DNA of 64,000 bases, from the NCBI GenBank assembly GCA_963780475.1, contig CAWACB010000008.1, positions 617,857 through 681,856 of the forward strand. The letters are read 5' to 3'. This DNA is from an uncultured Solirubrobacterales bacterium (GTDB lineage Bacteria; Actinomycetota; Thermoleophilia; Solirubrobacterales; JBBDJG01). Below the pieces are notes generated by a model. It had not been told where the DNA came from, did no database searches, and saw nothing but the letters and a program-made list of their open reading frames with translations. Shown in pieces: positions 2,905-63,419 of the stretch. The first letter of the stretch is position 1. The number at the start of each line of letters is the position of its first letter. The position numbers and the translations under genes are program-made.

Positions 2905-2918
2905 GTCCTAATGATGGC

Positions 2919-9531: not shown

Positions 9532-9634
9532 TACCCCTCCTGCTAGGAAACTGCAGCGATGGTAGTGGAGATGGCTAGGCTTTGTGCGGCGAGCGTCACG
9601 CGCTCGCGGACGGGCGGTTGAGCGAGGAGATCCA

Positions 9635-10367
9635 TTGAGGCCTAGCAAGACCCTGCCGTCGATCGCGCTCGCGCTGGGGCTGCTGCTGATCTGCGCGACG
9701 GCCGCGTCGGCGGGTGGGAGAAAAGAGGAGCAGTCGAGCGTCGAGCGGCTACGGCCCGCCGTCGAGGGGATCGACCTCGAGGTCGTCGACGGCGACAAGT
9801 TTCTCGCCCTGACGAACGAGTCCGGCAAGGTCATCCTCGTGAAGGGCTACGACGACGAGCCCTACCTGCGCTTCCTCGCCGGCGGAGTCGTCCAGGAGAA
9901 CCGCCGCTCACCCTCCAAGTTCGTCAACGACGACCGCTTCGGGCTGACGCCGGTACCGGCCGCCGCGAACTCCGACGCCACGCCCGTTTGGCGAACCGTT
10001 TCCCAGAACGGCACGTACAGATGGTTCGACCATCGCACCCACTCGATGGACAAGGGAATCCCGTCCGCAGGTGAAGGACCCCGAGCAGCGCACCAAGATC
10101 TTCGACTGGAACGTGCCGATGGAGGTCGGCGGCGCGCCGGTGGCGGCGCTCGGGACCCTCGAGTGGGTCCCTGCGTCCGAGTCCTCGTCGGACGGCGGCA
10201 TGTCGACCGGCGCGATCATCGCGATCGCAATCGGCGTGCTGCTGCTGCTCGGCGCGTTCGCCTATCTGCTTTCGCGGCGCCGCCGGCGCACGGTGCCCGC
10301 CGCCGCGGCGGGCGGGGTCGCGCCTCCCCCCGAGCCGGATCAGCCCAAGGAGAAGGAAGTCTGGTGA
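9635..10367 (+). CDS. uncharacterised secreted, C-terminally membrane-anchored protein (1-nt frame break near 10068)
   Basis: TTG start 5 nt after GAGGAG, with signal peptide MRPSKTLPSIALALGLLLICATAASA. The sequence ...TYRWFDHRTHSMDKGIPS continues in ORF 10071-10367 as VKDPEQRTKIFDWNVPMEVGG...LEWVP, followed by a TM helix and an RRRRR stop-transfer. Confidence 0.6.
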
Positions 10368-12171
10368 GGCGACGCGCGCTCGTGGTCCTCGCGCTGGCCG
10401 TGACAGTGCTCGCGGTGGCTCCGGCCGTCGCCATGGGCCACGCGGTCGTGGAGGGCACGGCGCCGCTGTCGGGCGAGACGGTCAAGCGCCAGCCGGCACA
10501 GATCGAGTTCCGTTACAGCGAGCCCGTCGAGGGCAACTTCGGCGCGATCCGCGTATTCGACAGCAAGAGCCGGCGCGTCGACAGCGGCGAGTCGTTCCAC
10601 CCCGGCGGCCAGGGATCGCGACTCGCGGTGCGACTCAAGCCGAACGTTCCAAAGGGCACCTACACCGCCACCTACCGCGTCATCTCCGCCGACAGCCATC
10701 CCGTCTCGGGCGGCTTCGTGTTCTCGGTCGGCCGCGCGTCGGCGAGCGGCGCGACGGTCTCGGACCTTCTCAACGACCGCGGCGCCAGCGGTGACGTCAC
10801 CGAGTTCTTCTTCGGCGTCACGCGGACGCTCCAGTACGCGGCGACGGCGATCGCGATCGGCGCCATCTTCTTCCTGCTCGTGATCTGGCTGCCCGCCCTT
10901 GCCTCGGTCGCCGGCGCGGGCGGCGAGTGGTCGCGCGCATCGGAGCGGTTCGCGCAGCGGCTGAGCCTCTTGCTCGCCGTGGCGGTCGTGACCGGCGTGG
11001 TTTCGTCGGCGCTCGGCATCGTGTTCCAGGGCGCGACCGCCGCGGGCGTGTCGTTCTGGAGCGCGCTCGACTGGGACGTCGTGGACCAGGTGCTCGGCAC
11101 GCGATTCGGAACGGTGTGGGGCATCCGGCTGCTCGTATGGCTGGCGCTGGGCGGGCTGCTGGTCGCGGCTTTCTCCGGCGCGCGCCGCCCCGTGCTGCGT
11201 CCGGCGTCCGTCGGGGCGACCGGCCTGGCGCTCGGGCGCCCGGGCCTGCGGAACGTGACGATCGCGGTCCTCCTCCTCCCGCTCGCCTTCCTCGCCATCG
11301 CTCCCGCGCTGGCCGGGCACGCCGGCCTGCAGGACCCGACCGCCGTCCTCTTCCCCGCCAACGTCGTCCACGTCATCGCGATGAGCATCTGGGCGGCCGG
11401 GCTCGTGACGCTGGTGCTCGCCGTCCCGGCCGCGACCCGCCAACTCGAAGGAACGGACCGCAGCCGCCTGCTGGCGGCCAACCTGGTCCGCTTCTCGAAC
11501 ATCGCGGCGGTGTGCGTGGCCGCGCTCCTGATCACGGGCGTCCTCCAGGCCTGGTTCGAGATCGGCGCCTGGAACAAGCTGTGGGACACGAAGTTCGGCG
11601 TGGCGGTGCTGATCAAGGCCGGCCTGCTCCTGATACCGCTCGCGGCGCTGGGCGCCTACAACCGCCGCCGTATCGTCCCGGAGCTGCGTGAGATCGCAGG
11701 CGGGCTCCGGCTACACCTGGTCGCACGGGCCTTCTGTTGAGGCGGTCGCTGCTGGCCGAGATCGCGCTGATCGCCGTGGTGCTGGGAGTGACCTCTGCGC
11801 TCGTCAGCTACCCACCGCCGGAATCGCTCGGGAACACGTCCGGGCCGTTCGCGGAGACGACGTCGTTCGGCCCGGCGGACATGCAGCTGACGGTCGATCC
11901 TGCACGGGTCGGCGCGAACGCGATGCACATCTATCTGACCGACAAGCGCACCGGCACCCAGTGGGACCAGCTGAAGGAGTTGAAGCTGTCGGCATCGCTG
12001 CCCAAGCAGGACATCGGCCCGGTCGCGCTCGACACGCGCAAGGCAGGCCCCGGTCACTTCGTCGTGGGCGGTGCGACCTTCGGCGCGGCGGGTGACTGGC
12101 AGCTGTCCGCCGAGGGCCTGGTCAGCGAGTTCGACGCGTACTACGCAAAGATCGACGTGCCCATCAAATAG
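10364..12171 (+). CDS. CopC-CopD-YtkA-like fusion, copper resistance/uptake membrane protein (frame break near 11703)
   Basis: GTG start overlaps the upstream stop (GTGA). The signal peptide is followed by a mature N-terminal His (AMG|HAVVEGTAP) and a CopC fold pattern (GTYTATYRVISADSHPVSGGFVF). A multi-TM CopD region follows. The last TM and a YtkA-like domain continue in ORF 11737-12171. Confidence 0.8.
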
Positions 12172-13108: not shown

Positions 13109-14953
13109 TCAGGCTGATCCGAACGGTCTCGGAGCTGCCGCCGCCCTGACCTTGGCGCGCAGCTGAACGCTCTTCGCGCTGCGCGGCACGTAGCAACGGC
13201 CGATCATCAGCCGGCTGCGGCCCTTGCCTGATCGCTTGGCGCGACGCAGGCGCGGACGCGACGAGAAGCGGCCCCGCTCATCCACGCGCAGGTGCGCGGC
13301 GGTGCTCCAGGTGCCGCGTGCGCGGACCTGCAGTGAGACGCTGCGCGACCCGCTCGCCGACGAAACCGCTCCGTACACCCGGCCCTTGACGATCAGGCGG
13401 CCGCCGCGCCAGAGCGAGTCGGTGTGGCTCTTGAGCCGCACCCGAGTGCGCGACTTGGCCTTGGTGCCGGTCGTGCCAGTCTCCGTCGCGGGCGGTCCCG
13501 CCGGTCCCAGGGTGCCAACCGGCCGGTATGGGGTCGGCGGTCCGGAGATCCGGCGGATGGACAGCGGTCCGCCGGGACCCGTCGGCGGTCCGGTCGGGCC
13601 AGTCGTGCCGGTCGGGCCCGACGGTCCAGACGGACCAGTCGGACCAGTGGGCCCTGTCGGACCAGTGGGACCAGTGGGCCCTGTCGGACCAGTGGGACCA
13701 GTCGGACCTGTCGGTCCGGATGGACCGGTGGGACCAGTGGGACCGGTTGACCCGGTCGGGCCGGTCGGGCCGGTCGGGCCGGTCGGGCCGGTCGGGCCGG
13801 ACGGACCAGTCGGACCAGTCGGACCAGTGGGACCAGTGGGACCGGTGGGACCAGTGGGACCGGTCGGGCCGGTCGGTCCGGACGGACCAGTGGGCCCCGT
13901 AGGACCAGTCGGCCCCGTAGGGCCAGTGGGACCTGTCGGCCCGGTCGGACCGGTCGGGCCGGTCGTCCCGCCGGGCTCCACGTTCACGAGGCGCAGGTCA
14001 TCGGGTCGGAGCCGCACGGAGGACTGGCTCAGCCCGGCCTGGTCCCAGAGCTCCGCGTGGGTGGAATCCGCGTCCAGCTCGAAGCTCGCGCCCTGGTCCA
14101 CTATGTAGGCGCCGTAGATCTTGAGCGCCCGCACGACGTTGCGCACGCCGATGCTCGCGTCTGCTGCGGGCTCGTAGTCGGAGCGCAGCACGTAAAGCTG
14201 GCCGTACTTGACTCCGCACCCGCAGTTCCCATCGCTCTTCACGGCCGGCGGATTGATGTACTCGCGCGCTACGCGCGGCACTGTGATCCCAAGGGCGTGG
14301 TCGAAGCCGAGCAGCGCCTCCTCGGCGGTCAGAGTGGTCGTGACGAGCGGCGTTCCCGACCCGCGGGCGGTGGCGTTCTCGCAGCACGTCGCCAGGCCGT
14401 TCCCGTTCAGGTCCCAGACGGCGAGGTTGGCCGCCTCGTAACGCCCGGCGAGGACGTTGGCCTCCGTGCAGGGCGGGCCGCTGTCGCTGCCCATCTTGCA
14501 ACGCCAGAACGTCCATGCGCGCGTCTTGTCCGCCGAGACGATCACCAGGTGCCCATCGGTGCCGGCGGCCGCGTACATACCGGCCGGGACCGGGATGCAC
14601 TCGCCGTGATAGGCGACGTTGCCCTTGGCCCAATCCGGATGACGGACGTTGGCCGTGCGGCACTGATCGAGCGGTGAGGCCCAGAAAGTCGGCTTCGCGT
14701 AGTTGATGTCCGGCGGGATGCCGGAGATGTTCATCGTTCCGTCGTAGCTCGTGAACTCGCTCGCGTACGGATTGCTGGCAGTGACCTCGCCCTTGGCGGC
14801 TGCGGGCACGTTCCAGAGACTGTTGGCCTGAAAGGCCCTGAAGGGTGCCGCGGCCGCGGGCTGGACGCCGGCTGTCAAGAAGATGACCAGAAGCGCGACG
14901 GCTGCGAGAAGCGAGCGCGCCAGCTTCCTCTTGGGAAACGCTGATCCGTGCAT
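13109..14953 (-). CDS. secreted protein: unknown N-terminal globular domain + collagen-like (GPT)n region + basic C-terminal domain
   Basis: ATG at 14953, 3 nt after GGAGGAG. Signal/TM segment [28 protein letters not shown]. About 40 uninterrupted G-X-Y triplets, mostly GPT with occasional GPS, GST and GTT. Confidence 0.8.
13565..13965 (-). repeat. coding 9-nt periodic tandem repeat (GPT collagen-like triplets)
   Basis: Plus strand shows reiterated ggaccagt(c/g)gg(a/g)cc(a/g)gt units. These translate on the minus strand as GPTGPTGPT... Confidence 0.85.
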
Positions 14954-15096
14954 CGGCTCCTCCGCCCAGGTTGAGCCGCCCGTTTGCAAGTCCACAGTGC
15001 GTCACGGGCTCCGCGACGCGGTCGGAAGCTTTGCAGACTTCGGGGACGTGCGTCGGTTCGCGACGCCTTTTCTTTACGACCCGGTAAGAGTTGCGC

Positions 15097-36397: not shown

Positions 36398-36558
36398 TGC
36401 TCCGTGATCCGTACCTCCTGTCACGTGCTTCTTGCCTGCAAAGAGCGGGAGAAAGCTAGCAGGAAGACGGCGCCGGACGCAGTTTCCCTTCCCGCCGGCG
36501 CCCTGCTGCAGCGCGGATTGCGAGGCCGTCCCGATCGGCGAGCAATATCTTGCGGCCC

Positions 36559-37365
36559 ATGGACTTGGGGCTCGCGGGACGCACGTGCGTCGTTACCGGC
36601 GCAAGCAGCGGTATCGGCGCCGAGACCGCGCGCCAGCTGTGCGCCGAGGGCGCTTCGGTGCTGCTCGTGGCGCGGGACGAGGAGCGCCTGCGGGTGGAGG
36701 TGGAGCGATGCCGCGCAGCGGGCGGCAAGGCCGAGGCGCTGTCGTGCGACGTCACGGAGGCGGATGCCGGCGAGCGGATGGCGAGCGCCGCGGAAGAGCG
36801 AGTTCGGGCCCGTGGACGTGCTGGTCAACAACGCCGGCACCGCTCGGTGGCGTGACCTCGACGACGTGCCCGACGAGGATTGGCAGGCGGCCTGGGATCT
36901 GAACGTGATGGCCTCGCTGCGGGCGATGCGCGCCGTCGTGCCGGGGATGCGCGAGCGTGGCTGGGGCCGGGTGGTGAACGTCGTCCAGCACGGCGGGGAA
37001 GCGGCCCTCGGCGCTGATGCCCGAGTACTCGGTGGCAAAGGCGGCGCAGCTCTCCCTGTCACGCCTGTACGCGGACCGGTGCGCCGCCGACGGCGTGCTG
37101 GTGAACGCGATCTGCCCGGGGCCGACCAAGTCGGAGCTGTGGGTCGGCGAGGGCGGGCTCGCGGAGCAGTCGGCCGCGATGGCGGGCGACGATCCCGCCG
37201 CGGCCCTCGAGCGCGCGGGCGCCGGCCGGCCGATCAAGCGCCTCGCCGAGGTGGAGGAGATCGCGGCCGCGATCGTGTTCCTGTGCTCCGAGCGCGCCTC
37301 CTACGTCGCCGGCGCGGCGTGGAGCGTGGACGGCGGGACCGTGCCGGTGATTATCTCAGCGAGCC
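36559..37365 (+). CDS. short-chain dehydrogenase/reductase (frame breaks near 36800 and 36982; 3' end unresolved)
   Basis: Three fragments lie in three frames: MDLGLAGRTCVVTGASSGIG... (ORF 36550), FGPVDVLVNNAG...RVVNV (ORF 36335 frame), and SSTAGKRPSALMPEYSVAKAA...AAWSVDGG (ORF 37017 frame). No in-frame stop follows soon after VDGG. Confidence 0.65.
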
Positions 37366-38284
37366 GCGGCTCCTCGATCTGGATCAGCGGGCCCTCGGTC
37401 CGCGACCCCTCGACCATCTGCAGCGTCGTGTGGTCGATGCCGAACCGGTCGTGCAGGACGCGCTCGACCCCGTGCCGCGCGCGGTCCCGGTCGGTGCCGG
37501 GAGCGACCGTGACGTGCGCGGAAAGCGCCGGGAAGCCGGAGGTCACCGTCCACACGTGCAGGTCGTGCACCTCGACGACGTCCGGGACCGAGCACATGGC
37601 CTCCCCCACCGTCGTGACGTCCATGCCTGCCGGCGCCGACTCGAGCAGCACGTCGAGCGGCTCCTTCAGCGGCCGCCATGCGCTGGCTGCGATCAGCAGT
37701 GCGATCGCGATGCTGATCAGCGGGTCGATCAGGTCCCAGCCGGTGGTCAGGATCACGGCGCCCGCCGCCACCACGCCGAGAGAGCTGATTGCGTCACCGA
37801 ATGAGTGACGCAGCACCGCCTCGAGGTTCACGTCCTCGCGCTCGCCCCCGGCCAGCACGACCGTCGCGATCGCGTTTCCCGCCAGTCCGACGAGGCCCAG
37901 GATCAGGACGCCCAACCCGGCCACCTCCGGCGGATCCGACAAGCGGCCGATCGCCGCCACCAGGACCAGCACCGCCACGACCACCAGGGTGACGCCGTTG
38001 ACGAACGCCGCCACGATCTCGCTGCGCTGGAGGCCAAAGGTCCGCGAGGGCGTCGGGGCCAGGGACGCCAGGCGGATGGCCAGCAGCGCGATGCCGATCG
38101 ATCCCACGTCCGAGAGCACATGGCCGGCCTCGGCGAGCAGGGCGAGTGAGTCCGTGAGCAGTCCCCCGGCGACCGCCGCGACCAGCATCGCGGCATTGAT
38201 CGCGAGCGCGACCCACATCCGGCGCGCGTTCTCGCGCCGGCGCAAGGTCGGGCTGCCGTGATGTTGGTGATCGTGCCCCAACAC
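37301..38284 (-). CDS. cation diffusion facilitator (CDF) family transporter
   Basis: GTG start at 38284 with a His-rich N-terminus GHDHQHHG. Motifs LLAEAGHVLSDV, HSFGDAISS, and the C-terminal domain HDLHVWTV...GIDHTTLQ. Confidence 0.8.
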   Translation of the reverse strand: MLGHDHQHHGSPTLRRRENARRMWVALAINAAMLVAAVAGGLLTDSLALLAEAGHVLSDVGSIGIALLAIRLASLAPTPSRTFGLQRSEIVAAFVNGVTLVVVAVLVLVAAIGRLSDPPEVAGLGVLILGLVGLAGNAIATVVLAGGEREDVNLEAVLRHSFGDAISSLGVVAAGAVILTTGWDLIDPLISIAIALLIAASAWRPLKEPLDVLLESAPAGMDVTTVGEAMCSVPDVVEVHDLHVWTVTSGFPALSAHVTVAPGTDRDRARHGVERVLHDRFGIDHTTLQMVEGSRTEGPLIQIEEPRLAEIITGTVPPSTLHAAPAT

Positions 38285-52407: not shown

Positions 52408-53289
52408 CTAGACGCGGCGGATCCACAGCGAGGAGCCGCGATCGCGGTGCTCGTCGGTGAGGTCCGGGAACACCGCCCGCAGGCGGTCCCAGTGGTTGGT
52501 GCGCAGCCAGTACGTGCCGAGCAGGACCTCGAAGGCCGTGTTGAAGGCCAGGAACGCCTGCAGCAGGTACTGCTCGTTCCACGCGCGGCCCTCGAGCACC
52601 CAGTTCTCCGGGTAGTCGCCCGGCATGAAGATGTCGTGGATGTGGACGACCACGCCCGGTCGCAGCCGCGGCAGGATCTGGTTGTAGATCCAGGGCACGT
52701 CGCCGCCGGTCTTGGCGACATGTGACGTGTCGATGAACAGCAGGTCGTTATCGCCGAGCGACTCGAACACCTCGAGCGGCGTGTCCTGCACCTCCTCGGT
52801 GCGCAACTCGGTCATGCCGTCCACCCCGGCCTTCAGCGCGTCCGGCGGGAACGGGTCGATCGTCGTGAAGTGGATCCGGCCGCCGAGCAGCTCCCGGTTG
52901 ACACGCGCGGTGACGAGCGACGAGTGGCCCGCGCCGACGTCGACCACTCGCGCCGGCTCGAGCTGCCGGACGAAGGCCTGCAACACCCAGGCGTCGAGCG
53001 CCGGGTACATGCGGCTGCGGCTCCAGTAATGGGTGATCGGGTCGGGCCGGTCGGACGGGAACTCGAGCGGCGTCTGCTCGCCGAACCGCTCCAGCAGCTC
53101 GAGTTGGGCGTCCGGGCGCCACTCGATCCCGGGCATCTCGAGCGGGCGGTCGCGAAAGACCCGGTCCCGCCACGCGGGGTCGTCGAAGCGCTTGGTGTCC
53201 GGCAGCGGCGAGTAGTAGTGCCCGGGCTTGCAGAAGAGCTTCACCGGGTGCTCGTCGCCGCGGCGGTCGATCAGGATCAGGTCGGCCAT
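52408..53289 (-). CDS. class I SAM-dependent methyltransferase-like protein
   Basis: 293 aa. Motif I VVDVGAGHSS and the acidic loop LLFIDTSH. Confidence 0.7.
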   Translation of the reverse strand: MADLILIDRRGDEHPVKLFCKPGHYYSPLPDTKRFDDPAWRDRVFRDRPLEMPGIEWRPDAQLELLERFGEQTPLEFPSDRPDPITHYWSRSRMYPALDAWVLQAFVRQLEPARVVDVGAGHSSLVTARVNRELLGGRIHFTTIDPFPPDALKAGVDGMTELRTEEVQDTPLEVFESLGDNDLLFIDTSHVAKTGGDVPWIYNQILPRLRPGVVVHIHDIFMPGDYPENWVLEGRAWNEQYLLQAFLAFNTAFEVLLGTYWLRTNHWDRLRAVFPDLTDEHRDRGSSLWIRRV

Positions 53290-53353
53290 GGCGCCGGAGT
53301 ATCCCAGCAGGGCACGGGGGATCTGGAGTCACCCGACCGCCGAACTCGCGATA

Positions 53354-54064
53354 ATGCCGGTCCCCGTGCGGTCCCGTGCGCTCAAAAACGCCCGTCTCTG
53401 GCTCGCCGTGGCGCTCGCCACGGCCCTTCCCGTGATGACCGCGTGCAACGAGAGCGGCGGCGACGAGACCGCCGGGAAGGAGCTCTTCACCCAGCGCTGC
53501 GGCGCGTGCCACGTGCTCAACGACGCGGGAACGAAGGGCGTCCAGGGCCCCAACCTCGACTACGCGTTCCAGCAGTCGATCAAGGACGGCCTCGGCCGGA
53601 GCACGATCGAGGCCGTGGTCCGCGAGCAGATCGACATGCCGATGGGCAAGGAGATGCCGGCGGACCTGGTGAAGGGCAAGGAAGCAGACTCGGTCGCGGC
53701 CTACGTCGCGAGCGCCGTCGGGAAGCCCCCGGCGGCCGGCGGGGGCGCAGCCGGCGGGGCCGCCTCCGGGACCGCCGAGGCGAACGCGCAGAACGTGGTC
53801 GACATACCGGCCGACCCGAACGGGCAGCTCGCCTACAAGTACAAGAGCGCCACGGCCAAGGCCGGCAAGATCACGCTCGAGTCCACCAACGACTCGACCG
53901 TCCCCCACGACATCGGACTGAAGGGCGGCCCCGTAGGCAAGGAGGTCTCGGGTGGCGCGACCTCGAAGATCGAGGTCGACCTAAAGCCGGGGAGCTACAC
54001 CTTCTACTGCAGCGTGCCGGGCCACGAGCAGGCCGGGATGAAGGGCAGCCTCTCCATCAAGTAA
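53354..54064 (+). CDS. lipoprotein: class I c-type cytochrome domain fused to a type-1 copper cupredoxin domain
   Basis: ATG at 53354 with lipobox VMTAC. Heme motif CGACH plus DMPMG. A Gly/Ala linker follows. Cupredoxin ligands are VPHDI and YCSVPGHEQAGM. Confidence 0.8.
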   Translation: MPVPVRSRALKNARLWLAVALATALPVMTACNESGGDETAGKELFTQRCGACHVLNDAGTKGVQGPNLDYAFQQSIKDGLGRSTIEAVVREQIDMPMGKEMPADLVKGKEADSVAAYVASAVGKPPAAGGGAAGGAASGTAEANAQNVVDIPADPNGQLAYKYKSATAKAGKITLESTNDSTVPHDIGLKGGPVGKEVSGGATSKIEVDLKPGSYTFYCSVPGHEQAGMKGSLSIK

Positions 54065-54716
54065 TTCCGCGGCCGGCCTCGCGCTCGAGGTCGACGACGA
54101 CGTGGGTGACGGGGATCTCGAAGCGCTCTCGCGCGCGCTCGACGACGCCCCGCTCGAGCCAGTTGGAGCGGCCCAGCGGGTGCGTCGAGATGATCACCTC
54201 GTCGGCCGGGAACTTCCGCAGCTCGTCCTCCATCGCCTGGACGGGGTCGCCGTCGCCGATGTCGCCCTCTGCTGCCAGCCCGTCGCGCTCGAGCGTCGAG
54301 AGGATGCTCTGCAGCCGCTCGGCGGCCGCGGAGCGTGCGCCGTCCTCGTCGGATGCCCATGTCTTGAGCCGCGTGTTGAGCGCCGGGGTGACGACGCGAA
54401 TCTCGGCGTCCTTGCCCTGGCATCGGTGCTCGATCTCGTGCCGCAGGGCGGCGCCGGTGAGTGTCTCGTTGGCCACCACGAGGATGCGCACCGTTCCGTC
54501 GCCGTCGCCGCGGCGCCTCAGGTCCACGCGCTCTGGCTTGCGGTCCTCACGCCGCATCAGAAAGGCGGCCACGAGCCCGATCGTCAGGCCGCCGGCCACG
54601 CCGATCGCGACCTCGGAGTCCCAGATGACTGCCGCCAGCACGATGGGCGCGACCAGTACCGCGACGATCAGGGTGAAGCGGAAGGCCTCCTGCTCGGATC
54701 TGAGTGGATTGATCAC
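54057..54716 (-). CDS. membrane-anchored USP/HUP-like domain protein (third copy of the CtaD-appended domain)
   Basis: GTG start after GGAAGGAGG, 24 nt downstream of ctaE. Two TM helices are followed by RILVVANETLTG...DEVIISTHPLGRSNWLERGVVERARERFEIPVTHVV. Confidence 0.75.
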   Translation of the reverse strand: MINPLRSEQEAFRFTLIVAVLVAPIVLAAVIWDSEVAIGVAGGLTIGLVAAFLMRREDRKPERVDLRRRGDGDGTVRILVVANETLTGAALRHEIEHRCQGKDAEIRVVTPALNTRLKTWASDEDGARSAAAERLQSILSTLERDGLAAEGDIGDGDPVQAMEDELRKFPADEVIISTHPLGRSNWLERGVVERARERFEIPVTHVVVDLEREAGRGIT

Positions 54717-54740
54717 CGAGGCCTCCTTCCGTATCGGTGC

Positions 54741-55370
54741 CTAGAGGATGTAGACGGTCAGGAACACGATGATCCACATAACGTCGACGAAGTGCCAGTA
54801 GATGCCTGCCATCTCGACGCCCATATGGTCCTCGGTCTTCGGGCCGAAGTGCCCGCGGAGCGCTCGCGTGGCCATGATCGCCAGCAGAGTCAGCCCGACG
54901 AAGACGTGCAGGCCATGGAGCCCGGTGAGCCCATAGAAAGCCGACGCCCAGGCGCCGTCATGGATCGCGAACCCGGCCTTGAAGTACTCGTTGATCTGCG
55001 TGCAGAGGAAGGTCACCCCGAGGAAGAAGGTCGCCACCAGGCCGAGCTGCAGGCCGAACCGGTTGTTCTGCCGGATCGAGTGGAGCGCGTAGTGCATCGT
55101 GAAGCTCGAGGACACCAGCACAGCAGTGTTCATCGACGCGACGGGGACCGGGAACTCGAACGGCTCCGGTGGGAACGGCGTGTTCGCCACGACGCGGATG
55201 AAGAACATCGCCGTGAAGAACGACCCGAACAGCATCGCCTCGGAGACGATGAAGAGCAGCACCCCCAGCACCTGGGGGTGCACGCGGGAGCTGCGGTTGG
55301 CCGTCGGCGGGCCGTGATGGTGATCCTCGTGAGCGAGTCCGTGCGGGTGGGCGACGCTGGCGGATTCCAC
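54741..55370 (-). CDS. ctaE: cytochrome c oxidase subunit III
   Basis: 209 aa. Motifs LFIVSEAMLFGSFF, GLHGLHVFVG, YWHFVDVMWI. Confidence 0.9.
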   Translation of the reverse strand: MESASVAHPHGLAHEDHHHGPPTANRSSRVHPQVLGVLLFIVSEAMLFGSFFTAMFFIRVVANTPFPPEPFEFPVPVASMNTAVLVSSSFTMHYALHSIRQNNRFGLQLGLVATFFLGVTFLCTQINEYFKAGFAIHDGAWASAFYGLTGLHGLHVFVGLTLLAIMATRALRGHFGPKTEDHMGVEMAGIYWHFVDVMWIIVFLTVYIL

Positions 55371-55383
55371 TAGTCCACTGCTC

Positions 55384-58269
55384 CTACGCGGTCAGCTCGA
55401 CGGGGGTGGGAACGTCGCTTGTCACGTGCTCGACCGGCAGGCCGGTAGCCCGGCGGGCCCGGTTCGGAAGGTCGCCCCGCAGCCAGTTCGAGCGGTAGCT
55501 CGGCAGCGTAGAGATCACGATCTCGTCGACGTGGTCGTACTGGTGCGCGTTGACGATCGCCGTCAGCGGGTCGGGGTGGGTGACGTAGCCGGTCACGTCG
55601 AGCCCGGCCCGCCGGAGCTCCCGCAGGGTCTGGTCGAGCCGCTCCTGCGCGGCCTCGGTGGCCTGCCCGTCGGCGCCGTCCTGGGGCGCGATCACGGTGA
55701 ACCGGTGCGGAGCCTCGGTCGAGCGCCGCTCCAGCGTCTCGATCAGGGGCCGGCCCCCGATCGTCTGGTTTGCGACGACGAGCGTGTGCTTGAACGGCTC
55801 CTCGGTGAGGTTCACCTCGACGTGCTCGACCGGGATCTTCGCGAACGTCCGGATCCGCCCGATCAGGTCCCTGCGCAGGAACCCCGAACGCGGGTAGGGC
55901 AGCGTGGAGATGATGATCTCGTCTGCGCCCCACAGCCGCAGCGCGTCCTGGGTAGCCAGGAACGGGTCGGGATCCATCACCTCGCCCCGCGCCTCGATGC
56001 CGAGCTCCTTCATCCGGTCCAGCAGCTGCTCGAGCCGGATACCGGCGGCCGACTTCACCGTGTGGTCGTAGATCACGAAGCCGCGCTGCGGCTCGTTCTG
56101 GGGCGTCGCGATGGTGACGCGGATCGGCCCCTGGGCGGCGCGGCGCTCGATCGCTTCCAGGAGCCGCCGGCCGGCGACGGTCTCGTTGGGGACGACCAGG
56201 ACGTGGGCTGGCCGGCCGGTAGGGGTGTTGGAGAAGCAGCCTCCATCACTCTCGCCTGGGCCCGCCCGGCTCATCCGGCTCGTCCGGCTCGCTGCCGGCG
56301 CCGTGCCCGCCGGCATGGCCGTTGCCATCCCCGTCGCCATGCCTGCGCCGCTGGTGGCGACCTCCGATCCCGCCGGCACCGTCACCTTGGCGCGCTCACC
56401 GTCGAGGACTGCGTGCACGGCGCCGGGCACGCCGTATTCGTAGGGCCCGCCCACGACCTGCGGGATCTCGTCGAAGTTGAAGATCGGCGGCGGCGAGGAC
56501 ACCTGCCACTCGAGCGTGCGGGCGCGCCAGGGGTTGGCCGGCGCCGGCGGCCCGAAGGCCCAGCTGACGATCATGTTGTAGAAGAAGACCAGCGTCGACA
56601 GGCCGAGGATGAACGCGCCGATCGTGACCACGAAGTTCCAGGCGGCGAACTGATCCGCGTAGTCGGCCACGCGGCGCGGCATTCCCTCGAGGCCGAGCCA
56701 GTGCATCGGCCCGAACGTCAGGTTGAACGCGATGAACGTCATCCAGAAGTGGATCTTGCCGAGCCGCTCGTCGAACATCTTGCCGGTCATCTTCGGGAAC
56801 CAGTAGTAGATCCCGGCAAAGATCGTGAACATGCTGCCTCCGAACAGCACGTAGTGGAGGTGCGCCACGACGAAGTACGTGTCGGACGTGTGGATGTCCA
56901 CCGGGATCGCGGCGAGCATGATGCCGCTGATGCCCCCGAGCGTGAAGGTCACGATGAACCCGAGCGCGAACAGCATCGGCGTCGACATCTCCAGCACCCC
57001 TTGCCACAGCGTCGCCAGCCAGCTGAAGATCTTCACCCCCGTCGGCACGGCGATCAGCATCGTCGTGATCATCATCGGGACGCGCAGCCAGTCCTGCATC
57101 CCCGAGACGAACATGTGGTGCGCCCACACCGTGAAGCCGAGGAACAGGATCGCCACGAGCGACATGGCCATCAGGCGATAGCCGAAGATCGGCTTGCGCG
57201 ACTTGGCGGAGATGACCTCGGAGATGATCCCGAAGCCCGGCAGGACCATGATGTAGACGGCCGGGTGCGAGTAGAACCAGAAGATGTGCTGATACGAGAG
57301 CACGTCGCCGCCGAAGGCCGGGTCGAAGAAGTGAGCGTTCAGCGCACGGTCGAGCAGGACCAGGAACTGCGAGCCGGCGACGAAGGGGGTCGCGATCACA
57401 ACCAGCAGCGATGTCGTGAAGTTCGCCCAGACCAGCAGCGGCAGGCGCCAGAAAGTCATCCCGGGCGCACGCATAGTGATGATCGTGACCAGGAAGTTCA
57501 GCGCGGTCATGATCGACGAGGTGCCCGCGAACTGGACCCCGATCGTGAAGAACTGTTGCCCCAACGGGGCATCGGTGGACAAGGGCGCATAGGCGGTCCA
57601 GCCCGTGTTGAAGGCCCCTCCGTCCGGCACCAGGAAGCTCGCCACCATCATGAACCCGGCGACCGGCAGGAGCCAGTAGCTGAGCGCGTTCAGGCGCGGG
57701 AACGCCATGTCCGGCGCGCCGATCATGAGCGGGAGCACGTAGTTCGCGAGTCCCGCGAAGATCGGGATGACGACCAGGAAGATCATCAGCGCCGCGTGGA
57801 CCGAGAAGAGGCCGTTGTAGGTGTTCGAGTCCACCACCTGCTGGCCCGGCTGGGCCAGCTCGGCCCGGATCACCTCGGCCAGCAGCCCGCCGACCGCCAG
57901 GAAGAACAGCGCGGTGACCGTGTACTGGATGCCGATCACCTTGTGGTCGGTGTTGACCTTGAAGTAGTCCTTCCAGCTGCGCGCGCCGTGGTCGGCGTGG
58001 TCGTCCGGCCTGGTCGGAGAGCCGATCATGTAGCGGCCCCAGTAGTCGAAGCCGCCGATCCCGACCAGGAAGCCGAGCGGCGCCGCGAGCAGGATCACGG
58101 TCACGATCGGCTCGTCCACCCACAGGTCCTGGCCGTAGAGCGCCCGTACCGCGACTACGAGCCCCGTGACCAATGCAGCAGCCGCGACCGTCATCCAGGC
58201 CGCCCGCAGGAAGCCCGGCCGCATCAGCCGGGGCGCGGTGTGAGGCACAGCAGCCACCCCTGCGCTCAT
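55384..58269 (-). CDS. ctaD: cytochrome c oxidase subunit I with a 2-TM N-terminal extension and two C-terminal USP/HUP-like domains (as assembled)
   Basis: The ATG at 58269 overlaps the ctaC stop (ATGA). 961 aa. HCO core from KDYFKVNTDHKVIGIQY to TLEWQVSSPPP. A ~70-aa low-complexity linker follows. Domains at about 56205-55800 (HVLVVPNETVAG...DEIIISTLPYPRSGFLRRDL) and about 55791-55387 (HTLVVANQTIGG...DEIVISTLPSYRSNWLRGDL). Confidence 0.8.
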   Translation of the reverse strand: MSAGVAAVPHTAPRLMRPGFLRAAWMTVAAAALVTGLVVAVRALYGQDLWVDEPIVTVILLAAPLGFLVGIGGFDYWGRYMIGSPTRPDDHADHGARSWKDYFKVNTDHKVIGIQYTVTALFFLAVGGLLAEVIRAELAQPGQQVVDSNTYNGLFSVHAALMIFLVVIPIFAGLANYVLPLMIGAPDMAFPRLNALSYWLLPVAGFMMVASFLVPDGGAFNTGWTAYAPLSTDAPLGQQFFTIGVQFAGTSSIMTALNFLVTIITMRAPGMTFWRLPLLVWANFTTSLLVVIATPFVAGSQFLVLLDRALNAHFFDPAFGGDVLSYQHIFWFYSHPAVYIMVLPGFGIISEVISAKSRKPIFGYRLMAMSLVAILFLGFTVWAHHMFVSGMQDWLRVPMMITTMLIAVPTGVKIFSWLATLWQGVLEMSTPMLFALGFIVTFTLGGISGIMLAAIPVDIHTSDTYFVVAHLHYVLFGGSMFTIFAGIYYWFPKMTGKMFDERLGKIHFWMTFIAFNLTFGPMHWLGLEGMPRRVADYADQFAAWNFVVTIGAFILGLSTLVFFYNMIVSWAFGPPAPANPWRARTLEWQVSSPPPIFNFDEIPQVVGGPYEYGVPGAVHAVLDGERAKVTVPAGSEVATSGAGMATGMATAMPAGTAPAASRTSRMSRAGPGESDGGCFSNTPTGRPAHVLVVPNETVAGRRLLEAIERRAAQGPIRVTIATPQNEPQRGFVIYDHTVKSAAGIRLEQLLDRMKELGIEARGEVMDPDPFLATQDALRLWGADEIIISTLPYPRSGFLRRDLIGRIRTFAKIPVEHVEVNLTEEPFKHTLVVANQTIGGRPLIETLERRSTEAPHRFTVIAPQDGADGQATEAAQERLDQTLRELRRAGLDVTGYVTHPDPLTAIVNAHQYDHVDEIVISTLPSYRSNWLRGDLPNRARRATGLPVEHVTSDVPTPVELTA

Positions 58270-58997
58270 TCTACGAGGCCTCCCACCAGGTTCTGCTCGC
58301 GGCGCTGCTTGGCCGCCCAGCGGTCGAAGCTGGCCTGGGTCTCGACGACGACCCGGGCCCGCATGGTCGAATGGCCGAGGCCGCACAGCTCGGTGCAGGC
58401 GAGCGCGTAGCGCCCCGGCCGGTCCGGCGTCACGCGGACCTTCGTGGTGAGCCCGGGCACCAGGTCCCGCTTCATCCGGAACTCCGGCACCCAGAACGAG
58501 TGCAGGACGTCCTTGGCGTTCATCTCGAACTGGTACGGCGTGCCCGCGACCAGATGCAACTCGGCCGACTTCAGCTTCGGCTGCTGGTACTCGAAGGCCC
58601 ACGCAAACTGCTGCGCCACGACGTGGATCTCCTTCGTACCGGCCTTGCTCTCCTCGATGTCGCGCAGCACGAGGCCCGAGTAGACCGCCGCACCGACCAT
58701 CAGGACAGCCGGGATCGCGGTCCAGATCACCTCGAGGCGCGAATTGCCGTGGATCGGCTGGCCGTCGCGCGGGTCGTTGTATCGGCGCCGGAAATGCACC
58801 ACCGCTACCAACAGGATCGAGACCACGAGCGCGAAGATGTAGGCCGAGAGGACCGCGAGCACGTCGTAGAGCGTGTCGATCGGGCCCGCCTGGGTCGAGC
58901 TCTCCTCCGGCAGCCAGGGAACGGTGAGCACGAGCGCCGACATGGCGGTGCCCAGGGCGAGCGTCCAGAGGAGCACCTGTACGAACGGATTCCGCAT
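58266..58997 (-). CDS. ctaC: cytochrome c oxidase subunit II
   Basis: Starts MRNPFVQVLLW at 58997, overlapping the upstream stop (TGATG). CuA motif HSFWVPEF...CTELCGLGHSTM. Confidence 0.9.
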   Translation of the reverse strand: MRNPFVQVLLWTLALGTAMSALVLTVPWLPEESSTQAGPIDTLYDVLAVLSAYIFALVVSILLVAVVHFRRRYNDPRDGQPIHGNSRLEVIWTAIPAVLMVGAAVYSGLVLRDIEESKAGTKEIHVVAQQFAWAFEYQQPKLKSAELHLVAGTPYQFEMNAKDVLHSFWVPEFRMKRDLVPGLTTKVRVTPDRPGRYALACTELCGLGHSTMRARVVVETQASFDRWAAKQRREQNLVGGLVE

Positions 58998-59608
58998 CAC
59001 TCGACCGTCACATCCTGCTCCATTCCCGACTGGGCATGCCCCGGAACGGTGCACCAGAAGCGGTATTTGCCGGGCTTCAGGTCCACCTTCAGGTCTGCTT
59101 TTCCGCTGGCCTTGATCAACGGCGTCTTCTTCTCGGTGCCGTTTTCGATCGCGAGGTCGTGCTCGATCTTGCCGTCGTTCGCGACCTGGAAGTCGTAGGC
59201 CCCGGCCTTCAGGTCATTGCCGCCCTCGATCTCGATCGAGAACTCCTTCTCCTTGACCGGGACCACCTTGGCCTTGGCGGCCGCTCCCTCGCCTTCAGGC
59301 ACGGAGTTGCTGCCGCCGCCCTCGGATTCCTCTTTCGCGGCGCGCTCCTCGCCGGGTTCCTTGGCCTCCTGGTTCGCCTCGGCGTCCTTTTCGAGCTGCT
59401 CCTCCGCGGCGGCCTCCTCGAGCGGGTGCTCGACGTGGGTGACCGACACCAGCACGACCACGGTTACCAGCGTCAGGGCGATCGCGAAGCCCATCAGGGC
59501 CCGCGCCATAGAGCCGGTCGGCGGGAAATTCTTCTGAGTAAGCCCGACCGCCGCGAGCCCGAGCGCCCACGCGACCGAGATACCCGCCAGGACGTAGTAC
59601 CCCGTCAT
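58997..59608 (-). CDS. membrane-anchored type-1 copper cupredoxin (plastocyanin/halocyanin-like)
   Basis: 203 aa with two N-terminal TM helices and an acidic Glu/Ala/Lys linker. Cupredoxin ligands are IEHDL and FWCTVPGHAQSGM. It is the first gene of the cta operon. Confidence 0.8.
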   Translation of the reverse strand: MTGYYVLAGISVAWALGLAAVGLTQKNFPPTGSMARALMGFAIALTLVTVVVLVSVTHVEHPLEEAAAEEQLEKDAEANQEAKEPGEERAAKEESEGGGSNSVPEGEGAAAKAKVVPVKEKEFSIEIEGGNDLKAGAYDFQVANDGKIEHDLAIENGTEKKTPLIKASGKADLKVDLKPGKYRFWCTVPGHAQSGMEQDVTVE

Positions 59609-60581: not shown

Positions 60582-63419
60582 TCAGCGAACCTTGACCACC
60601 ACACTGCCGAGCCGGGTGGAGGGGCTCCCCGCCCGGTGCCTCGTCCTGACGGTCACGTTGACGCGCACGCGCTTTCCCGCGCGCCGCAGCTTCCGCTGAG
60701 CTGCCCGGGCGACGCGCACTTTGACGGTCGCCGACCGGCGCTGGCCGAGGAAAAAGGAGCGGTTGCCCAGCCTCAGCGTGCGCTTGCGCCCCCCGGGCTT
60801 GGAGGGGACGCGTGCACTGACCGCGACGGAGCCCCGGTTTGCCTGCTTGCACGTCAACCGCAGAGGCACAACGCCGCTTCTGGTGAGCTGAGCCGTTCGC
60901 CCGGTGACGCTGCAGCGGCCTTTGACACTGAGACCGTTCAGATCCTCGCAATCTCGTCCGACCCGGTCTCCGGCGTCAGCCCGCACGGCATCCTCCTCGG
61001 CGCCGCAGGCGACACTTCCCCGGGCACCGTCCACGGTGTTGATCAGGTCCTTGCCGGAGCCGGTACGGACGCTGCGGATGTCGGAGCCGACCCGGTCGCC
61101 CTCGCCCCGTTCGCCGTCGTTTGCCTGGCCGTCGAAGCTCACGCGTACGCGGCCGGTGCGCAGGGAGTAGTCCACGGTGTCGTTGCCGCCGCCGCCGCCG
61201 ATTGCATCGCCGCCGCCCCCGCTGTCCAGGACGTCGTCGCCGGGCCCGCCGGCGAGGGAGTCGCGGCCGTTGCCGGCGCGGATGAGATCGGCACCGGTCG
61301 AGCCGTCCAGCCGGTCGTCGCCGTCGGCGCCGTAGATGACGTCGTTGTTCGCGCCACCGGCAACCAGGTCGCCGCCCCCGCGCGCGTCCAGTACGTCGTC
61401 TCCCGAGCCGCCGTCCAGGGTGTCGGCGCCCTCGCTGCCGGTCAGCCGGTCATTGCCCGCGCCGCCTACCGCGCCCTCGACCTCGGAGAGGGCGTCGTTC
61501 TCGCCGGGCTCGCCGGCCGAGCCGGGCGCCGCCAGGTCGACTGTCACCGGCGCCTGCCGTCGCGCGTAGCTGACGTTGTCCGAGCCGGGGCCGCCCACGA
61601 GCGCGTCCGCGCCGGTGCCACCGTCGAGCGAGTCGTCGCCCGGTCCTCCGAGCAGCCGGTTCCCGCTCCCGTCGCCCACGAGCACGTCTGGCCCGCTTCC
61701 GCCAAGCACGGTGGCAATGTCGCCGGCGACGTTGTCCCCCTCGCCCGGGGCCCCGTCGTTGGCGATTCCGTCCAAGCTGACGCTGAGGGCGTCCGCACGG
61801 GCGGAGTAGTCGGCCGTATTCTCGCCCGGCCCGCCCGTCATCTCGTCCGGCCCGGCGCCGCCCGCGAGGACGTCGTGGCCTCCCTCGCCGGATAGCGCGT
61901 TCGCGCCGGAGTCGCCGGTCAACGTGTCGTTGTTGTCCGACCCGACCACGTTCTCGCCGCCGGAGAGGGCATCGGTACCGGCGCCGACTGTCTCCTGAAA
62001 GCCGGCGACACCGAGGTCGACCGTCACAGGCCCCGTCGAGGACGCATACGAGAAGGTGTCCACGCCCGTGCCTCCGTCGAGGGAATCGTTGCCGAGATTG
62101 CCCTCGAGAATGTCATTGTCGGGGCCGCCGTCGAGCACGTCCGGTCCGGCTCCGCCCACGAGCGCGTCGTTGCCTCCTTCGCCCGAGAGCACGTTGGCGC
62201 CGGCGTCCCCGAACAACGCGTCGTTGCCGCCGGAACCGCGCAGGTTCTCGCCGTCGGAGAGGGCATCGGTCCCAGCGCCGGCCGTGTCCTGATCGCCGGC
62301 AACGCCGAGGTCCACCCTCACGGGCCCCGTCGCGGACGCATAAGAGAAGGTGTCGACGCCTTCATCGCCGTCGAGAGCGTCGGTGCCCGACCCGCCCTCG
62401 AGGGTGTCATCGTCAGGGCCGCCATTCAGGCTGTCGGCGCCGTCTGACCCCTCGACCTGGTCGTCACCGGTGCCGCCGTCGAGCACGTCCGCATCGGCAC
62501 CTCCGTCGAGCGAATCGGAGCCGTCGCCGCCGGTCAGGGTGTCGTCGCCGGTGCCGCCACTCAGAGTGTCGGCGCCGTCTGATCCCTCGACCTGGTCGTC
62601 ACCGGTGCCGCCGTCGAGCACGTCCGCATCGGCACCTCCGTCGAGCGAATCGGAGCCGTCGCCGCCGGTCAGGTTGTCGTCGCCTGTATCGCCGATCAAT
62701 TCATCGGTTCCCGAAGCACCGGTCAGCTGGTCGTTTCCCGGTCCTCCGTTGAGCGAGTCCATGTCGGCGCCGCCGTCCAGCGAATCGGAGCCGTCACCGC
62801 CGGTCAGCTGATCGTTATCCGCCCCGCCGTCGAGGGTGTCCGTGTCCGTACCTCCGTCGAGCGAATCGGCGCCGTCGCCACCAGTCAGCGTGTCGTCGCC
62901 GGCGCCGCCCGTCAGCTGGTCGTCGCCCGTGCCGCCGTCGAGCGAGTCCGTGTCGGCGCCGCCGTCGAGCGAATCGGAGCCATCGCCACCGGTCAGGGTG
63001 TCGTCGCCCGTGCCGCCGATCAATTCATCGGCCCCCAGGGCGCCGGTCAGCTGATCGTTTCCGGATCCTCCGTCGAGCGAGAGTGGCAGCGCCAGCGCCG
63101 GGTCCGGCACGAAGGAGTCGTCCCCGTCGTCGAGTTGGACCACGATCGACGCGGCGGTCGCGCTGGGACAGGTGGCGATGTTGGGAGTTCCGGGGTCAAC
63201 GCTGCACCCATCGACGCCATCTGCGTCCAACACCTCGACACCGCCGGTGGCTGTGGTGCCGGCATCGGTGAACGTCAACGACCCGGCGGAGTCCGCAATC
63301 GCAAGCGCATTCGCCTCGCCGGACGCGGCGGCATACGTGACCGTCTGCGACCCCGCGTCGAAGCCTACGGTTGCAGCATGCGCAGCGGGGGCCCCCGCCG
63401 AAGCGAGGAGCCCCCCCAA
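60582..63419 (-). CDS. large secreted RTX-type calcium-binding repeat protein with a basic C-terminal module
   Basis: 945 aa from a TTG start, with dozens of GGxGxDxL nonapeptides. The signal-like N-terminus probably begins 9-10 codons upstream (IKRKILVVLLGGLLASAGAPAAHA) at a non-canonical codon. Confidence 0.85.
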   Translation of the reverse strand: MGGLLASAGAPAAHAATVGFDAGSQTVTYAAASGEANALAIADSAGSLTFTDAGTTATGGVEVLDADGVDGCSVDPGTPNIATCPSATAASIVVQLDDGDDSFVPDPALALPLSLDGGSGNDQLTGALGADELIGGTGDDTLTGGDGSDSLDGGADTDSLDGGTGDDQLTGGAGDDTLTGGDGADSLDGGTDTDTLDGGADNDQLTGGDGSDSLDGGADMDSLNGGPGNDQLTGASGTDELIGDTGDDNLTGGDGSDSLDGGADADVLDGGTGDDQVEGSDGADTLSGGTGDDTLTGGDGSDSLDGGADADVLDGGTGDDQVEGSDGADSLNGGPDDDTLEGGSGTDALDGDEGVDTFSYASATGPVRVDLGVAGDQDTAGAGTDALSDGENLRGSGGNDALFGDAGANVLSGEGGNDALVGGAGPDVLDGGPDNDILEGNLGNDSLDGGTGVDTFSYASSTGPVTVDLGVAGFQETVGAGTDALSGGENVVGSDNNDTLTGDSGANALSGEGGHDVLAGGAGPDEMTGGPGENTADYSARADALSVSLDGIANDGAPGEGDNVAGDIATVLGGSGPDVLVGDGSGNRLLGGPGDDSLDGGTGADALVGGPGSDNVSYARRQAPVTVDLAAPGSAGEPGENDALSEVEGAVGGAGNDRLTGSEGADTLDGGSGDDVLDARGGGDLVAGGANNDVIYGADGDDRLDGSTGADLIRAGNGRDSLAGGPGDDVLDSGGGGDAIGGGGGNDTVDYSLRTGRVRVSFDGQANDGERGEGDRVGSDIRSVRTGSGKDLINTVDGARGSVACGAEEDAVRADAGDRVGRDCEDLNGLSVKGRCSVTGRTAQLTRSGVVPLRLTCKQANRGSVAVSARVPSKPGGRKRTLRLGNRSFFLGQRRSATVKVRVARAAQRKLRRAGKRVRVNVTVRTRHRAGSPSTRLGSVVVKVR
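62432..62701 (-). repeat. 135-nt in-frame tandem duplication inside the RTX gene
   Basis: Units 62432-62566 and 62567-62701 are identical over about the first 107 nt apart from 2 substitutions. Each unit encodes 45 aa, i.e. five nonapeptides (LTGGDGSDSLDGGADADVLDGGTGDDQVEGSDGAD twice). Confidence 0.8.

Follow-up and report, generated by a model that had tools for sequence, protein, structure and literature searches.

Universal stress protein-like genes in the aa3 oxidase operon of Thermoleophilia and a probable assembly artefact that joins them to oxidase subunit I

Universal stress proteins (USPs), which are often generic stress proteins, include tandem forms with two USP domains in a chain of ~280-300 aa (UspE, 5CB0; Rv2623, 3CIS; TTHA0350, 3AB8; and 3LOQ), of which Rv2623 and TTHA0350 bind ATP through a glycine loop. 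USP modules are also carried on the cytoplasmic side of membrane proteins, namely the sensor kinase KdpD (7JI4) and the C-terminal domains of cation-chloride cotransporters (7TTH, 8VPN), which are ion transporters, and there they bind regulators or ligands. TeaD (3HGM), a single-domain ATP-binding USP regulating a transporter, is encoded in the operon of its membrane machine, the teaABCD TRAP transporter of Halomonas elongata, and TT0030 of Thermus thermophilus (2IEL) is a single 138-aa domain with no membrane anchor, for which no function or ligand is reported and on which the literature search gave no paper. Mitochondrial cytochrome c oxidase is under allosteric nucleotide control, including inhibition by ATP; however, no heme-copper oxidase with a USP-type partner was found in the literature searched, and we know of no tandem-type USP of the UspE, Rv2623, TTHA0350 or 3LOQ kind that is encoded inside an oxidase operon. 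Here, we describe USP-like genes in the aa3-type oxidase (cta) operon of an uncultured Solirubrobacterales bacterium, on a 64,000-nt stretch of contig CAWACB010000008.1 (the window), in which two USP-like domains appear, as assembled, to be fused to the C-terminus of oxidase subunit I, CtaD.

A first-pass annotation of the window had described ctaD as a 961-aa gene with a two-helix N-terminal extension, a low-complexity linker and two homologous C-terminal domains added to the oxidase core. The open reading frame (ORF) does run through 961 codons as assembled; as a real gene, however, it would need two 1-nt deletions, and with a probability of roughly 0.8-0.85 we regard the 961-aa CtaD, from sequence comparison, as an assembly artefact that joins two neighboring genes. 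When the full 961 aa were used as the query, the 30 closest CtaDs (80-87% identity) were only 637-682 aa long and all ended ahead of the USP-like domains. The C-terminal 275 aa, used as a separate query, recovered 4299 significant proteins, the best of which (63-90% identity) were stand-alone proteins of 272-311 aa starting with MEA(A/G)S; among the matches listed (120), the sole exception was P0052, a 417-aa frameshifted read-through. The closest homologs of the tandem domains were likewise stand-alone, at 287-291 aa and 88-90% identity, and in the related locus L001 (88% identity) ctaD encodes 673 aa and its final base doubles as the first of a 287-aa gene.

Alignment of the junction DNA from the window, L001 and two JGI contigs (L082 and L083) located the difference precisely. 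In all three relatives ctaD ends ...P(R)RE-TGA and overlaps the ATG-GAG of a separate gene; the junction GAGTGATGGAG is identical in all four sequences, and GAGTGATGGAGGC of the relatives' junction is kept letter for letter in the window. On either side of this retained TGATG the window has lost one base, in each case by contraction of a short run, first in the repetitive tail of ctaD (site 1) and again five codons into the next gene (site 2; Table 1). Putting back one A (~56340) and one C (~56230) yields a ctaD of 674 aa ending ...GNGDGDGNGHAGGHGAGSEPDEPDEPGGPRRE and a 287-aa tandem gene, compared with 673 and 287 aa in relatives. Because two single-base deletions surround an intact TGATG, the 961-codon frame is judged a pseudo-fusion. 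The linker (MATGMATAMPAGTAPAASRTSRMSRAGPGESDGGCFS; read in the fused frame as MATGMATAMPAG...) is the normal CtaD tail followed by the first codons of the next gene, both read out of frame, and the two domains thought to be appended to CtaD fall to a separate gene in this genome once the indels are mended. As restored, CtaD consists of the N-terminal extension, the COX1 core and a G/N/H/D/E-rich tail that ends PRRE-TGA. This tail is variable and built from GGC-AAT/CAT-type hexamer repeats, differs in length by multiples of 6 nt among close relatives, and in the window carries an extra 18-nt duplication of the GAGCCGGAC type.

Table 1. Features of the cta operon, of its junction and of other loci discussed; coordinates are positions in the 64,000-nt window unless a relative is named, and strands are those of the window.
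Feature	Position	Strand	Basis or remark
Cupredoxin, membrane-anchored, first operon gene	58997-59608	-	Pfam Copper-bind and SoxE matches
ctaC, oxidase subunit II	58266-58997	-	COX2_TM and COX2; TIGR02866 159.7 vs cut-off 147.7
961-codon ORF as assembled (CtaD, linker, two USP-like domains)	55384-58269	-	Open reading frame; judged pseudo-fusion
ctaD proper, 674 aa with one base restored near 56340	56246-58269	-	TIGR02891 match, residues 106-605
Two-helix N-terminal extension of CtaD, residues 1-~100	58060-58269	-	Clade trait
CtaD tail	56249-56345; L001 7900-8001; also L082, L083	-	Hexamer repeats
Frameshift site 1, AA to A	56339-56341	-	GGC-A-TGGC in window; GGC-AA-TGGC in L001, L082, L083
Retained TGATG	56244-56248	-	ctaD stop 56248-56246 overlaps tandem-gene ATG 56246-56244
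Frameshift site 2, CCC to CC	56230-56231	-	TCT-CC-AAC in window; TCT-CCC-AAC in L082; five codons into tandem gene
Tandem USP-like gene, 287 aa with one base restored	55384-56246	-	Start MEAASPNTPTGRPAHVLVV; stand-alone homologs, AlphaFold2, Foldseek
Tandem gene, domain 1	~55801-56214	-	
Tandem gene, domain 2	~55387-55794	-	
ctaE, oxidase subunit III	54741-55370	-	Pfam COX3, E = 6e-40
Transmembrane-anchored USP-like protein, 219 aa	54057-54716	-	N-terminus MINPLRSEQEAFRF; two transmembrane helices; USP-like domain ~54087-54494
Micropeptide-type helix (N-terminus of the anchored protein)	54612-54716; e.g. L004 7477-7581	-	After ctaE; set L004-L079
Cytochrome c and cupredoxin fusion protein, convergent gene	53228-54064	+	Pfam Cytochrom_C and Copper-bind
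Short-chain dehydrogenase	36547-37367	+	adh_short 2-75, 72-139, 135-187 in three frames (two shifts)
Acyl-CoA dehydrogenase	~39290	-	N-terminal domain in one frame, middle and C-terminal in another
3-Hydroxyacyl-CoA dehydrogenase	split ~45345	+	
CNNM-CBS-CorC protein	split ~47170	-	
Alpha/beta hydrolase	split ~33780	+	
Homoserine dehydrogenase	~31930	-	First half of NAD-binding domain missing in frame (probable)
CopC-CopD fusion ORF	9566-11740	+	Codon-position GC favors another frame at 10044-10325
945-aa RTX-type protein, second RTX-repeat gene, collagen-like ORF	60582-63419; 2908-3873; 13109-15001	-	

The operon is not the only part of the window in which reading frames are broken. Pfam matches divided between frames revealed at least six frameshifts outside the cta operon, in genes that keep their catalytic motifs and are otherwise without signs of decay (Table 1); in the split short-chain dehydrogenase, for example, the TGxxxGIG, NNAG and YxxxK motifs are all intact. 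The rate is roughly one indel per 8-10 kb, and therefore any odd fusion or truncation in the window needs checking. The record for the protein of the last operon gene gives a 1.18-Mb contig, a length that suggests assembly from long reads, and such assemblies are known to be prone to residual homopolymer indels (PMC9262707). The two junction deletions are most likely consensus errors of this kind.

It is quite improbable that the fusion is instead real in this strain, with two genuine 1-nt deletions having recently joined ctaD and the tandem gene to give a CtaD of ~105 kDa that bears two USP-like domains in the cytoplasm, like the fused proteins of Gaiellales and Miltoncostaeaceae-type lineages. 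Such an origin would require two independent frameshifts within 110 nt, of which site 1 alone would scramble the CtaD tail and site 2 alone would kill the tandem gene, yet TGATG and the tail frame are both preserved in their ancestral state, no relative has a counterpart of the fused-frame linker, and frameshifts in at least five other conserved genes of the window point to sequence error. Several observations nevertheless weigh against an artefact. The ORF is open across all 961 codons, and the GC content at third codon positions (GC3) is 0.70-0.95 in the ORF frame across the linker; the ancestral tail frame is GC3-rich too, however, so that codon usage favors neither frame. Natural CtaD fusions, in frame and recurrent in related lineages, show that the fused form is viable. 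Public reads bear on neither reading of the junction: the best word share of any public sequencing run with the window was 0.18, so that no run contains it, and Logan contigs from four soil runs had zero or near-zero depth over most of 56224-56410, with none at site 2. Programmed frameshifting was also considered and dropped, as two shifts of equal sign, one on either side of an intact TGATG, together with unrelated broken genes, fit sequence error better.

The same error-made fusion was met in a second genome. Among 81 related loci the only fused case was L051, from a long-read metagenome-assembled genome (MAG; 5860-6060), and it was rejected as a natural fusion: its true tail, PGARHAILDG...GAH-stop, lies in another frame, giving a pseudo-fusion of the same kind. 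The long ENA proteins P0052, P0151, P0152, P0158 and P0161 were likewise set aside as frameshifted read-throughs, with conserved CtaD or CtaE motifs scrambled. Frame-split copies of ctaD were seen in the public long-read MAGs L002, L015, L022, L028 and L077, and a frame-split ctaE in L001 (8876-9500).

With the artefact set aside, the association of USP-like genes with the oxidase operon is real and class-wide. To assess its distribution, 80 species-representative genomes were recovered by the family profile from Solirubrobacterales, Thermoleophilaceae, Conexibacter (including isolate CPCC 205762) and Gaiellales. The order ctaC-ctaD-tandem gene-ctaE is kept in 80/80 genomes, and in most of them the ctaD stop overlaps the tandem start or lies a few bases from it. 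Of the two findings that, taken together, the first-pass annotation had named as telling against its proposal, junction indels that restore a stop were thus found, whereas the domains, far from being unlinked, accompany cta operons in every genome examined. As with TeaD, a USP-like gene is located in the same operon as a membrane complex (between ctaD and ctaE in each of the 80 genomes); in contrast to TeaD, the USP-like proteins accompany a terminal oxidase and lack the ATP loop, and the window has three copies of the domain.

The broader proposal that USP-like modules are fused to subunit I also proved true, in other lineages rather than in this genome. In Gaiellales, the clusters P0207 (159 members) and P0208 (41 members), drawn from many JGI samples and from NCBI MAGs (e.g., HEX5195854.1, HZI34791.1, HEY0387119.1), are CtaDs with one USP-like domain and 792-822 aa. 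P0174, whose single NCBI member carries the label Miltoncostaeaceae, includes four full-length 926-aa proteins, each with two domains, and P0153 (947 aa) is a further in-frame example. In the natural fusions the conserved GVPGARHA tail reads on in frame, both alternative frames are full of stops, and ctaE comes immediately after. A tail continuous in frame with the USP-like domain, and free of any leftover stop and start, was seen in L084, L085 and L086 and was not seen in the window ORF. The Gaiellales and Miltoncostaeaceae-type fusions thus share the domain family, the operon slot from the COX1 core to ctaE and the two-helix N-terminal extension with the window, but lack a vestigial stop and start, whereas the fusion in the window depends on two frameshifts. 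They are analogous to the USP modules of KdpD and the cotransporters, although the membrane partner differs, and public records label them only 'cytochrome c oxidase subunit I'. A literature search for USPs in connection with cytochrome oxidase or Thermoleophilia, or for a USP-ctaD fusion, found nothing relevant, and the operon-embedded USP-like genes are apparently undescribed.

The domains themselves belong to a TT0030-like branch of the USP superfamily. The three ~135-aa copies in the window, recognised as homologous at first pass, share 38-42% pairwise identity and 35 invariant columns, and find one another reciprocally by tblastn in 80 other genomes. The third copy does follow ctaE behind two transmembrane helices (residues 14-32 and 36-54), as the 219-aa product of the last gene. 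An AlphaFold2 model of the tandem region (predicted local distance difference test, pLDDT, 83; predicted TM-score, pTM, 0.78) has two five-stranded beta-alpha-beta domains, and in that of the 219-aa protein (pLDDT 75) this fold is preceded by a pair of long helices. Foldseek comparison of both models with the PDB upheld the USP/HUP-like fold suggested earlier, with nearly all matches at probability 1.00 being USPs: the tandem model matched the tandem USPs 3LOQ, 7MQ5, 3MT0, UspE, Rv2623 and TTHA0350, and the anchored model matched 2IEL and then only USPs, including TeaD (TM-score 0.64-0.71), the KdpD USP domain and the cAMP-binding MSMEG_3811. The C-terminal domains of cation-chloride cotransporters were also among the Foldseek matches. 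The best single-domain match was TT0030 (2IEL; TM-score 0.77-0.78, about 30% identity, 31% for the tandem model). TT0030 is a clear homolog, detected by phmmer (E = 3.7e-4) and by the family profile (E = 5.8e-12, residues 2-136 of 138), and has the STLPxxxSxWLR motif in common with the window proteins; it differs in being a single, unanchored domain. The tandem USPs resemble the tandem protein in having two domains in a chain of similar length, but identity is 12-16% and the domains are arranged differently (root-mean-square deviation 18-20 Å with both domains superposed).

Pfam Usp (PF00582, gathering score 24 bits) gave the anchored copy only 15.8 bits (E = 0.022) and did not match the CtaD-attached copies; on 11 family members it matched three (E ≥ 0.0013), and beyond this sub-threshold match neither Pfam nor NCBIfam assigned the domains to a family. 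Among 1.84 billion cluster representatives, a profile search recovered 5247 members (clusters at 50% identity), which fall by length into tandem proteins of ~280-290 aa, anchored ones of ~210-225 aa and single-domain ones of ~140-170 aa. Four loops are conserved at the C-terminal edge of the sheet, (V)VANET, PQN, DPDP and STxPxxRSxWL, and in the models they appear to sit where USPs bind nucleotides, though the ATP glycine loop is missing. In the profile alignment to the ATP-binding MJ0577 (1MJH), STxPxxRSxWL stands opposite GSHGKTNLKEILLGSV, the G-x2-G-x9-GS ATP loop, and the classical G-x2-G-x9-G(S/T) motif is absent from all three copies, in agreement with the first impression from the sequence. 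It is highly improbable, in our view, that the domains are classical ATP-binding USPs through which the oxidase responds directly to ATP, in the manner of mitochondrial allosteric ATP inhibition. The USP fold with its conserved loops at the nucleotide-site edge and the weak profile match to MJ0577 (E = 0.0028) would fit such a sensor; however, in the three copies and in TT0030 alike STxPxxRSxWL takes the place of the glycine loop, and Pfam Usp stays under its threshold.

On the most parsimonious reading of gene order, fusions and fold, the USP-like proteins would be cytoplasmic accessory or regulatory subunits of the aa3 oxidase. The organism would have two genes at this position, a ctaD of ~674 aa and then a 287-aa protein of two USP-like domains, and the overlap of the ctaD TGA with the next ATG implies translational coupling. 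The C-terminus of the 12-helix subunit I of A-family oxidases is cytoplasmic, and two extra helices leave that unchanged; all three USP-like domains are therefore placed in the cytoplasm, where they would dock on the cytoplasmic face of the enzyme, the tandem protein as an internal pseudo-dimer and the third copy tethered to the complex by a helix that would itself be a small oxidase subunit. Because the nucleotide-site loops are conserved without the ATP glycine loop, we favor a ligand other than ATP, or else a protein partner, for the module, which could tune or stabilize the oxidase, e.g., on its cytoplasmic proton-uptake side, under energy or stress conditions. In its strongest form, the proposal that the Thermoleophilia aa3 oxidase carries a dedicated USP-like cytoplasmic sensor, made up of the tandem protein (joined to CtaD in certain lineages) and the helix-anchored copy, through which a non-ATP small molecule directly gates or stabilizes the enzyme, is tentative and open to considerable doubt. 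Against the accessory-subunit reading as such count the sub-threshold Pfam Usp match and the fact that we infer oxidase association, ligand binding and regulation solely from gene order, fusions and fold.

The main functional rival is a role in assembly or maturation of the oxidase, in which case, or if the proteins were co-transcribed general stress proteins, the USP-like genes would be real and separate without encoding oxidase subunits. The many stand-alone or differently anchored members of the family (5247 clusters, many of 140-170 aa) are compatible with this, as is the generic stress function of many USPs, and the literature searched held no biochemical data on the family. We nevertheless consider it unlikely, as the position between ctaD and ctaE, with its stop/start overlap, is invariant across the whole class, covalent fusion to the CtaD C-terminus has occurred repeatedly, and one copy is anchored through an operon-specific micropeptide helix. 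With an invariant slot, fusions and a shared helix, stoichiometric partners are expected rather than a transient factor.

This helix defines a further putative component of the operon. In 59 of 79 loci the gene after ctaE opens with a conserved M(L/I)NPLRSExEAFRF helix; in 42 of the 79 it encodes nothing more than a single-helix micropeptide of ~36 aa (MLNPLRSEQEAFRFLLYVAV...RAL), whereas in 17 the helix is followed by a second helix and a USP-like domain, as in the window. The micropeptide is a candidate small oxidase subunit, judged from its sequence and position, and has probably been missed by gene callers because of its size.

The remainder of the operon is that of an A-family oxidase. 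Within the 961-codon ORF, Pfam COX1 matches residues 112-554, and the A-family subunit I equivalog TIGR02891 scores 695.4 bits (cut-off 670.75) across positions 4-504 of its 504, while the threshold of NF050116, an actinobacterial exception model, was not reached (610 vs 880). The extra two-helix N-terminal extension reported for CtaD is present as two hydrophobic segments (residues 23-41 and 55-73) upstream of the COX1 core; it is a clade trait, common to the closest homologs (all 630-680 aa), and in some Gaiellales forms a His-rich N-terminus (MAVAHAGDMAGHGHSHG...) is added. ORF calls and profile matches bear out the minus-strand gene order first proposed, cupredoxin-ctaC-ctaD-ctaE-anchored USP-like gene, and its coordinates. 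The stop of the cupredoxin gene overlaps the start of ctaC, which is preceded by the same gene in L001, and the ctaC start was placed at MRNPFVQ to give 243 aa, equal to ctaC of L001 (243 aa). The convergent gene for a cytochrome c-cupredoxin protein, whose N-terminus resembles that of a lipoprotein (...LPVMTAC), shares 8 nt with the end of the anchored USP-like gene. It keeps its place beside the operon in most relatives, with tblastn matches downstream of ctaE in most of the 81 loci. Its product is likely an electron donor, and together with the cupredoxin gene before ctaC it suggests a copper-protein electron route to the aa3 oxidase.

Elsewhere in the window, the N-terminal ~290 aa of a CopC-CopD fusion ORF match no family, and within them a compensated indel pair may account for the stretch where codon-position GC favors another frame (Table 1). 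A 945-aa protein full of GGxGxD RTX-type repeats, a second and possibly frameshifted RTX-repeat gene, and an ORF with collagen-like triple-helix repeats were also noted; their products are probably large proteins, secreted or on the cell surface, with no relation to the oxidase.

Where a stop and a start codon overlap, errors of a single base in high-GC long-read assemblies can produce false domain fusions that are convincing because off-frame stops are rare in high-GC DNA, and the same pseudo-fusion arose independently in the public MAG L051. At the same time, a whole class of abundant soil Actinomycetota has USP-like proteins in its core oxidase operon, with fusion to subunit I in several lineages; these natural fusions are strong hints of physical partnership. 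If the proposed association is true, it would represent a new coupling of respiration to the energy or stress state of the cell, the sensor module would parallel in bacteria the allosteric control that nucleotides exert on the mitochondrial oxidase, and the ~36-aa NPLRSExEAFRF micropeptide would be a candidate for a new small oxidase subunit.

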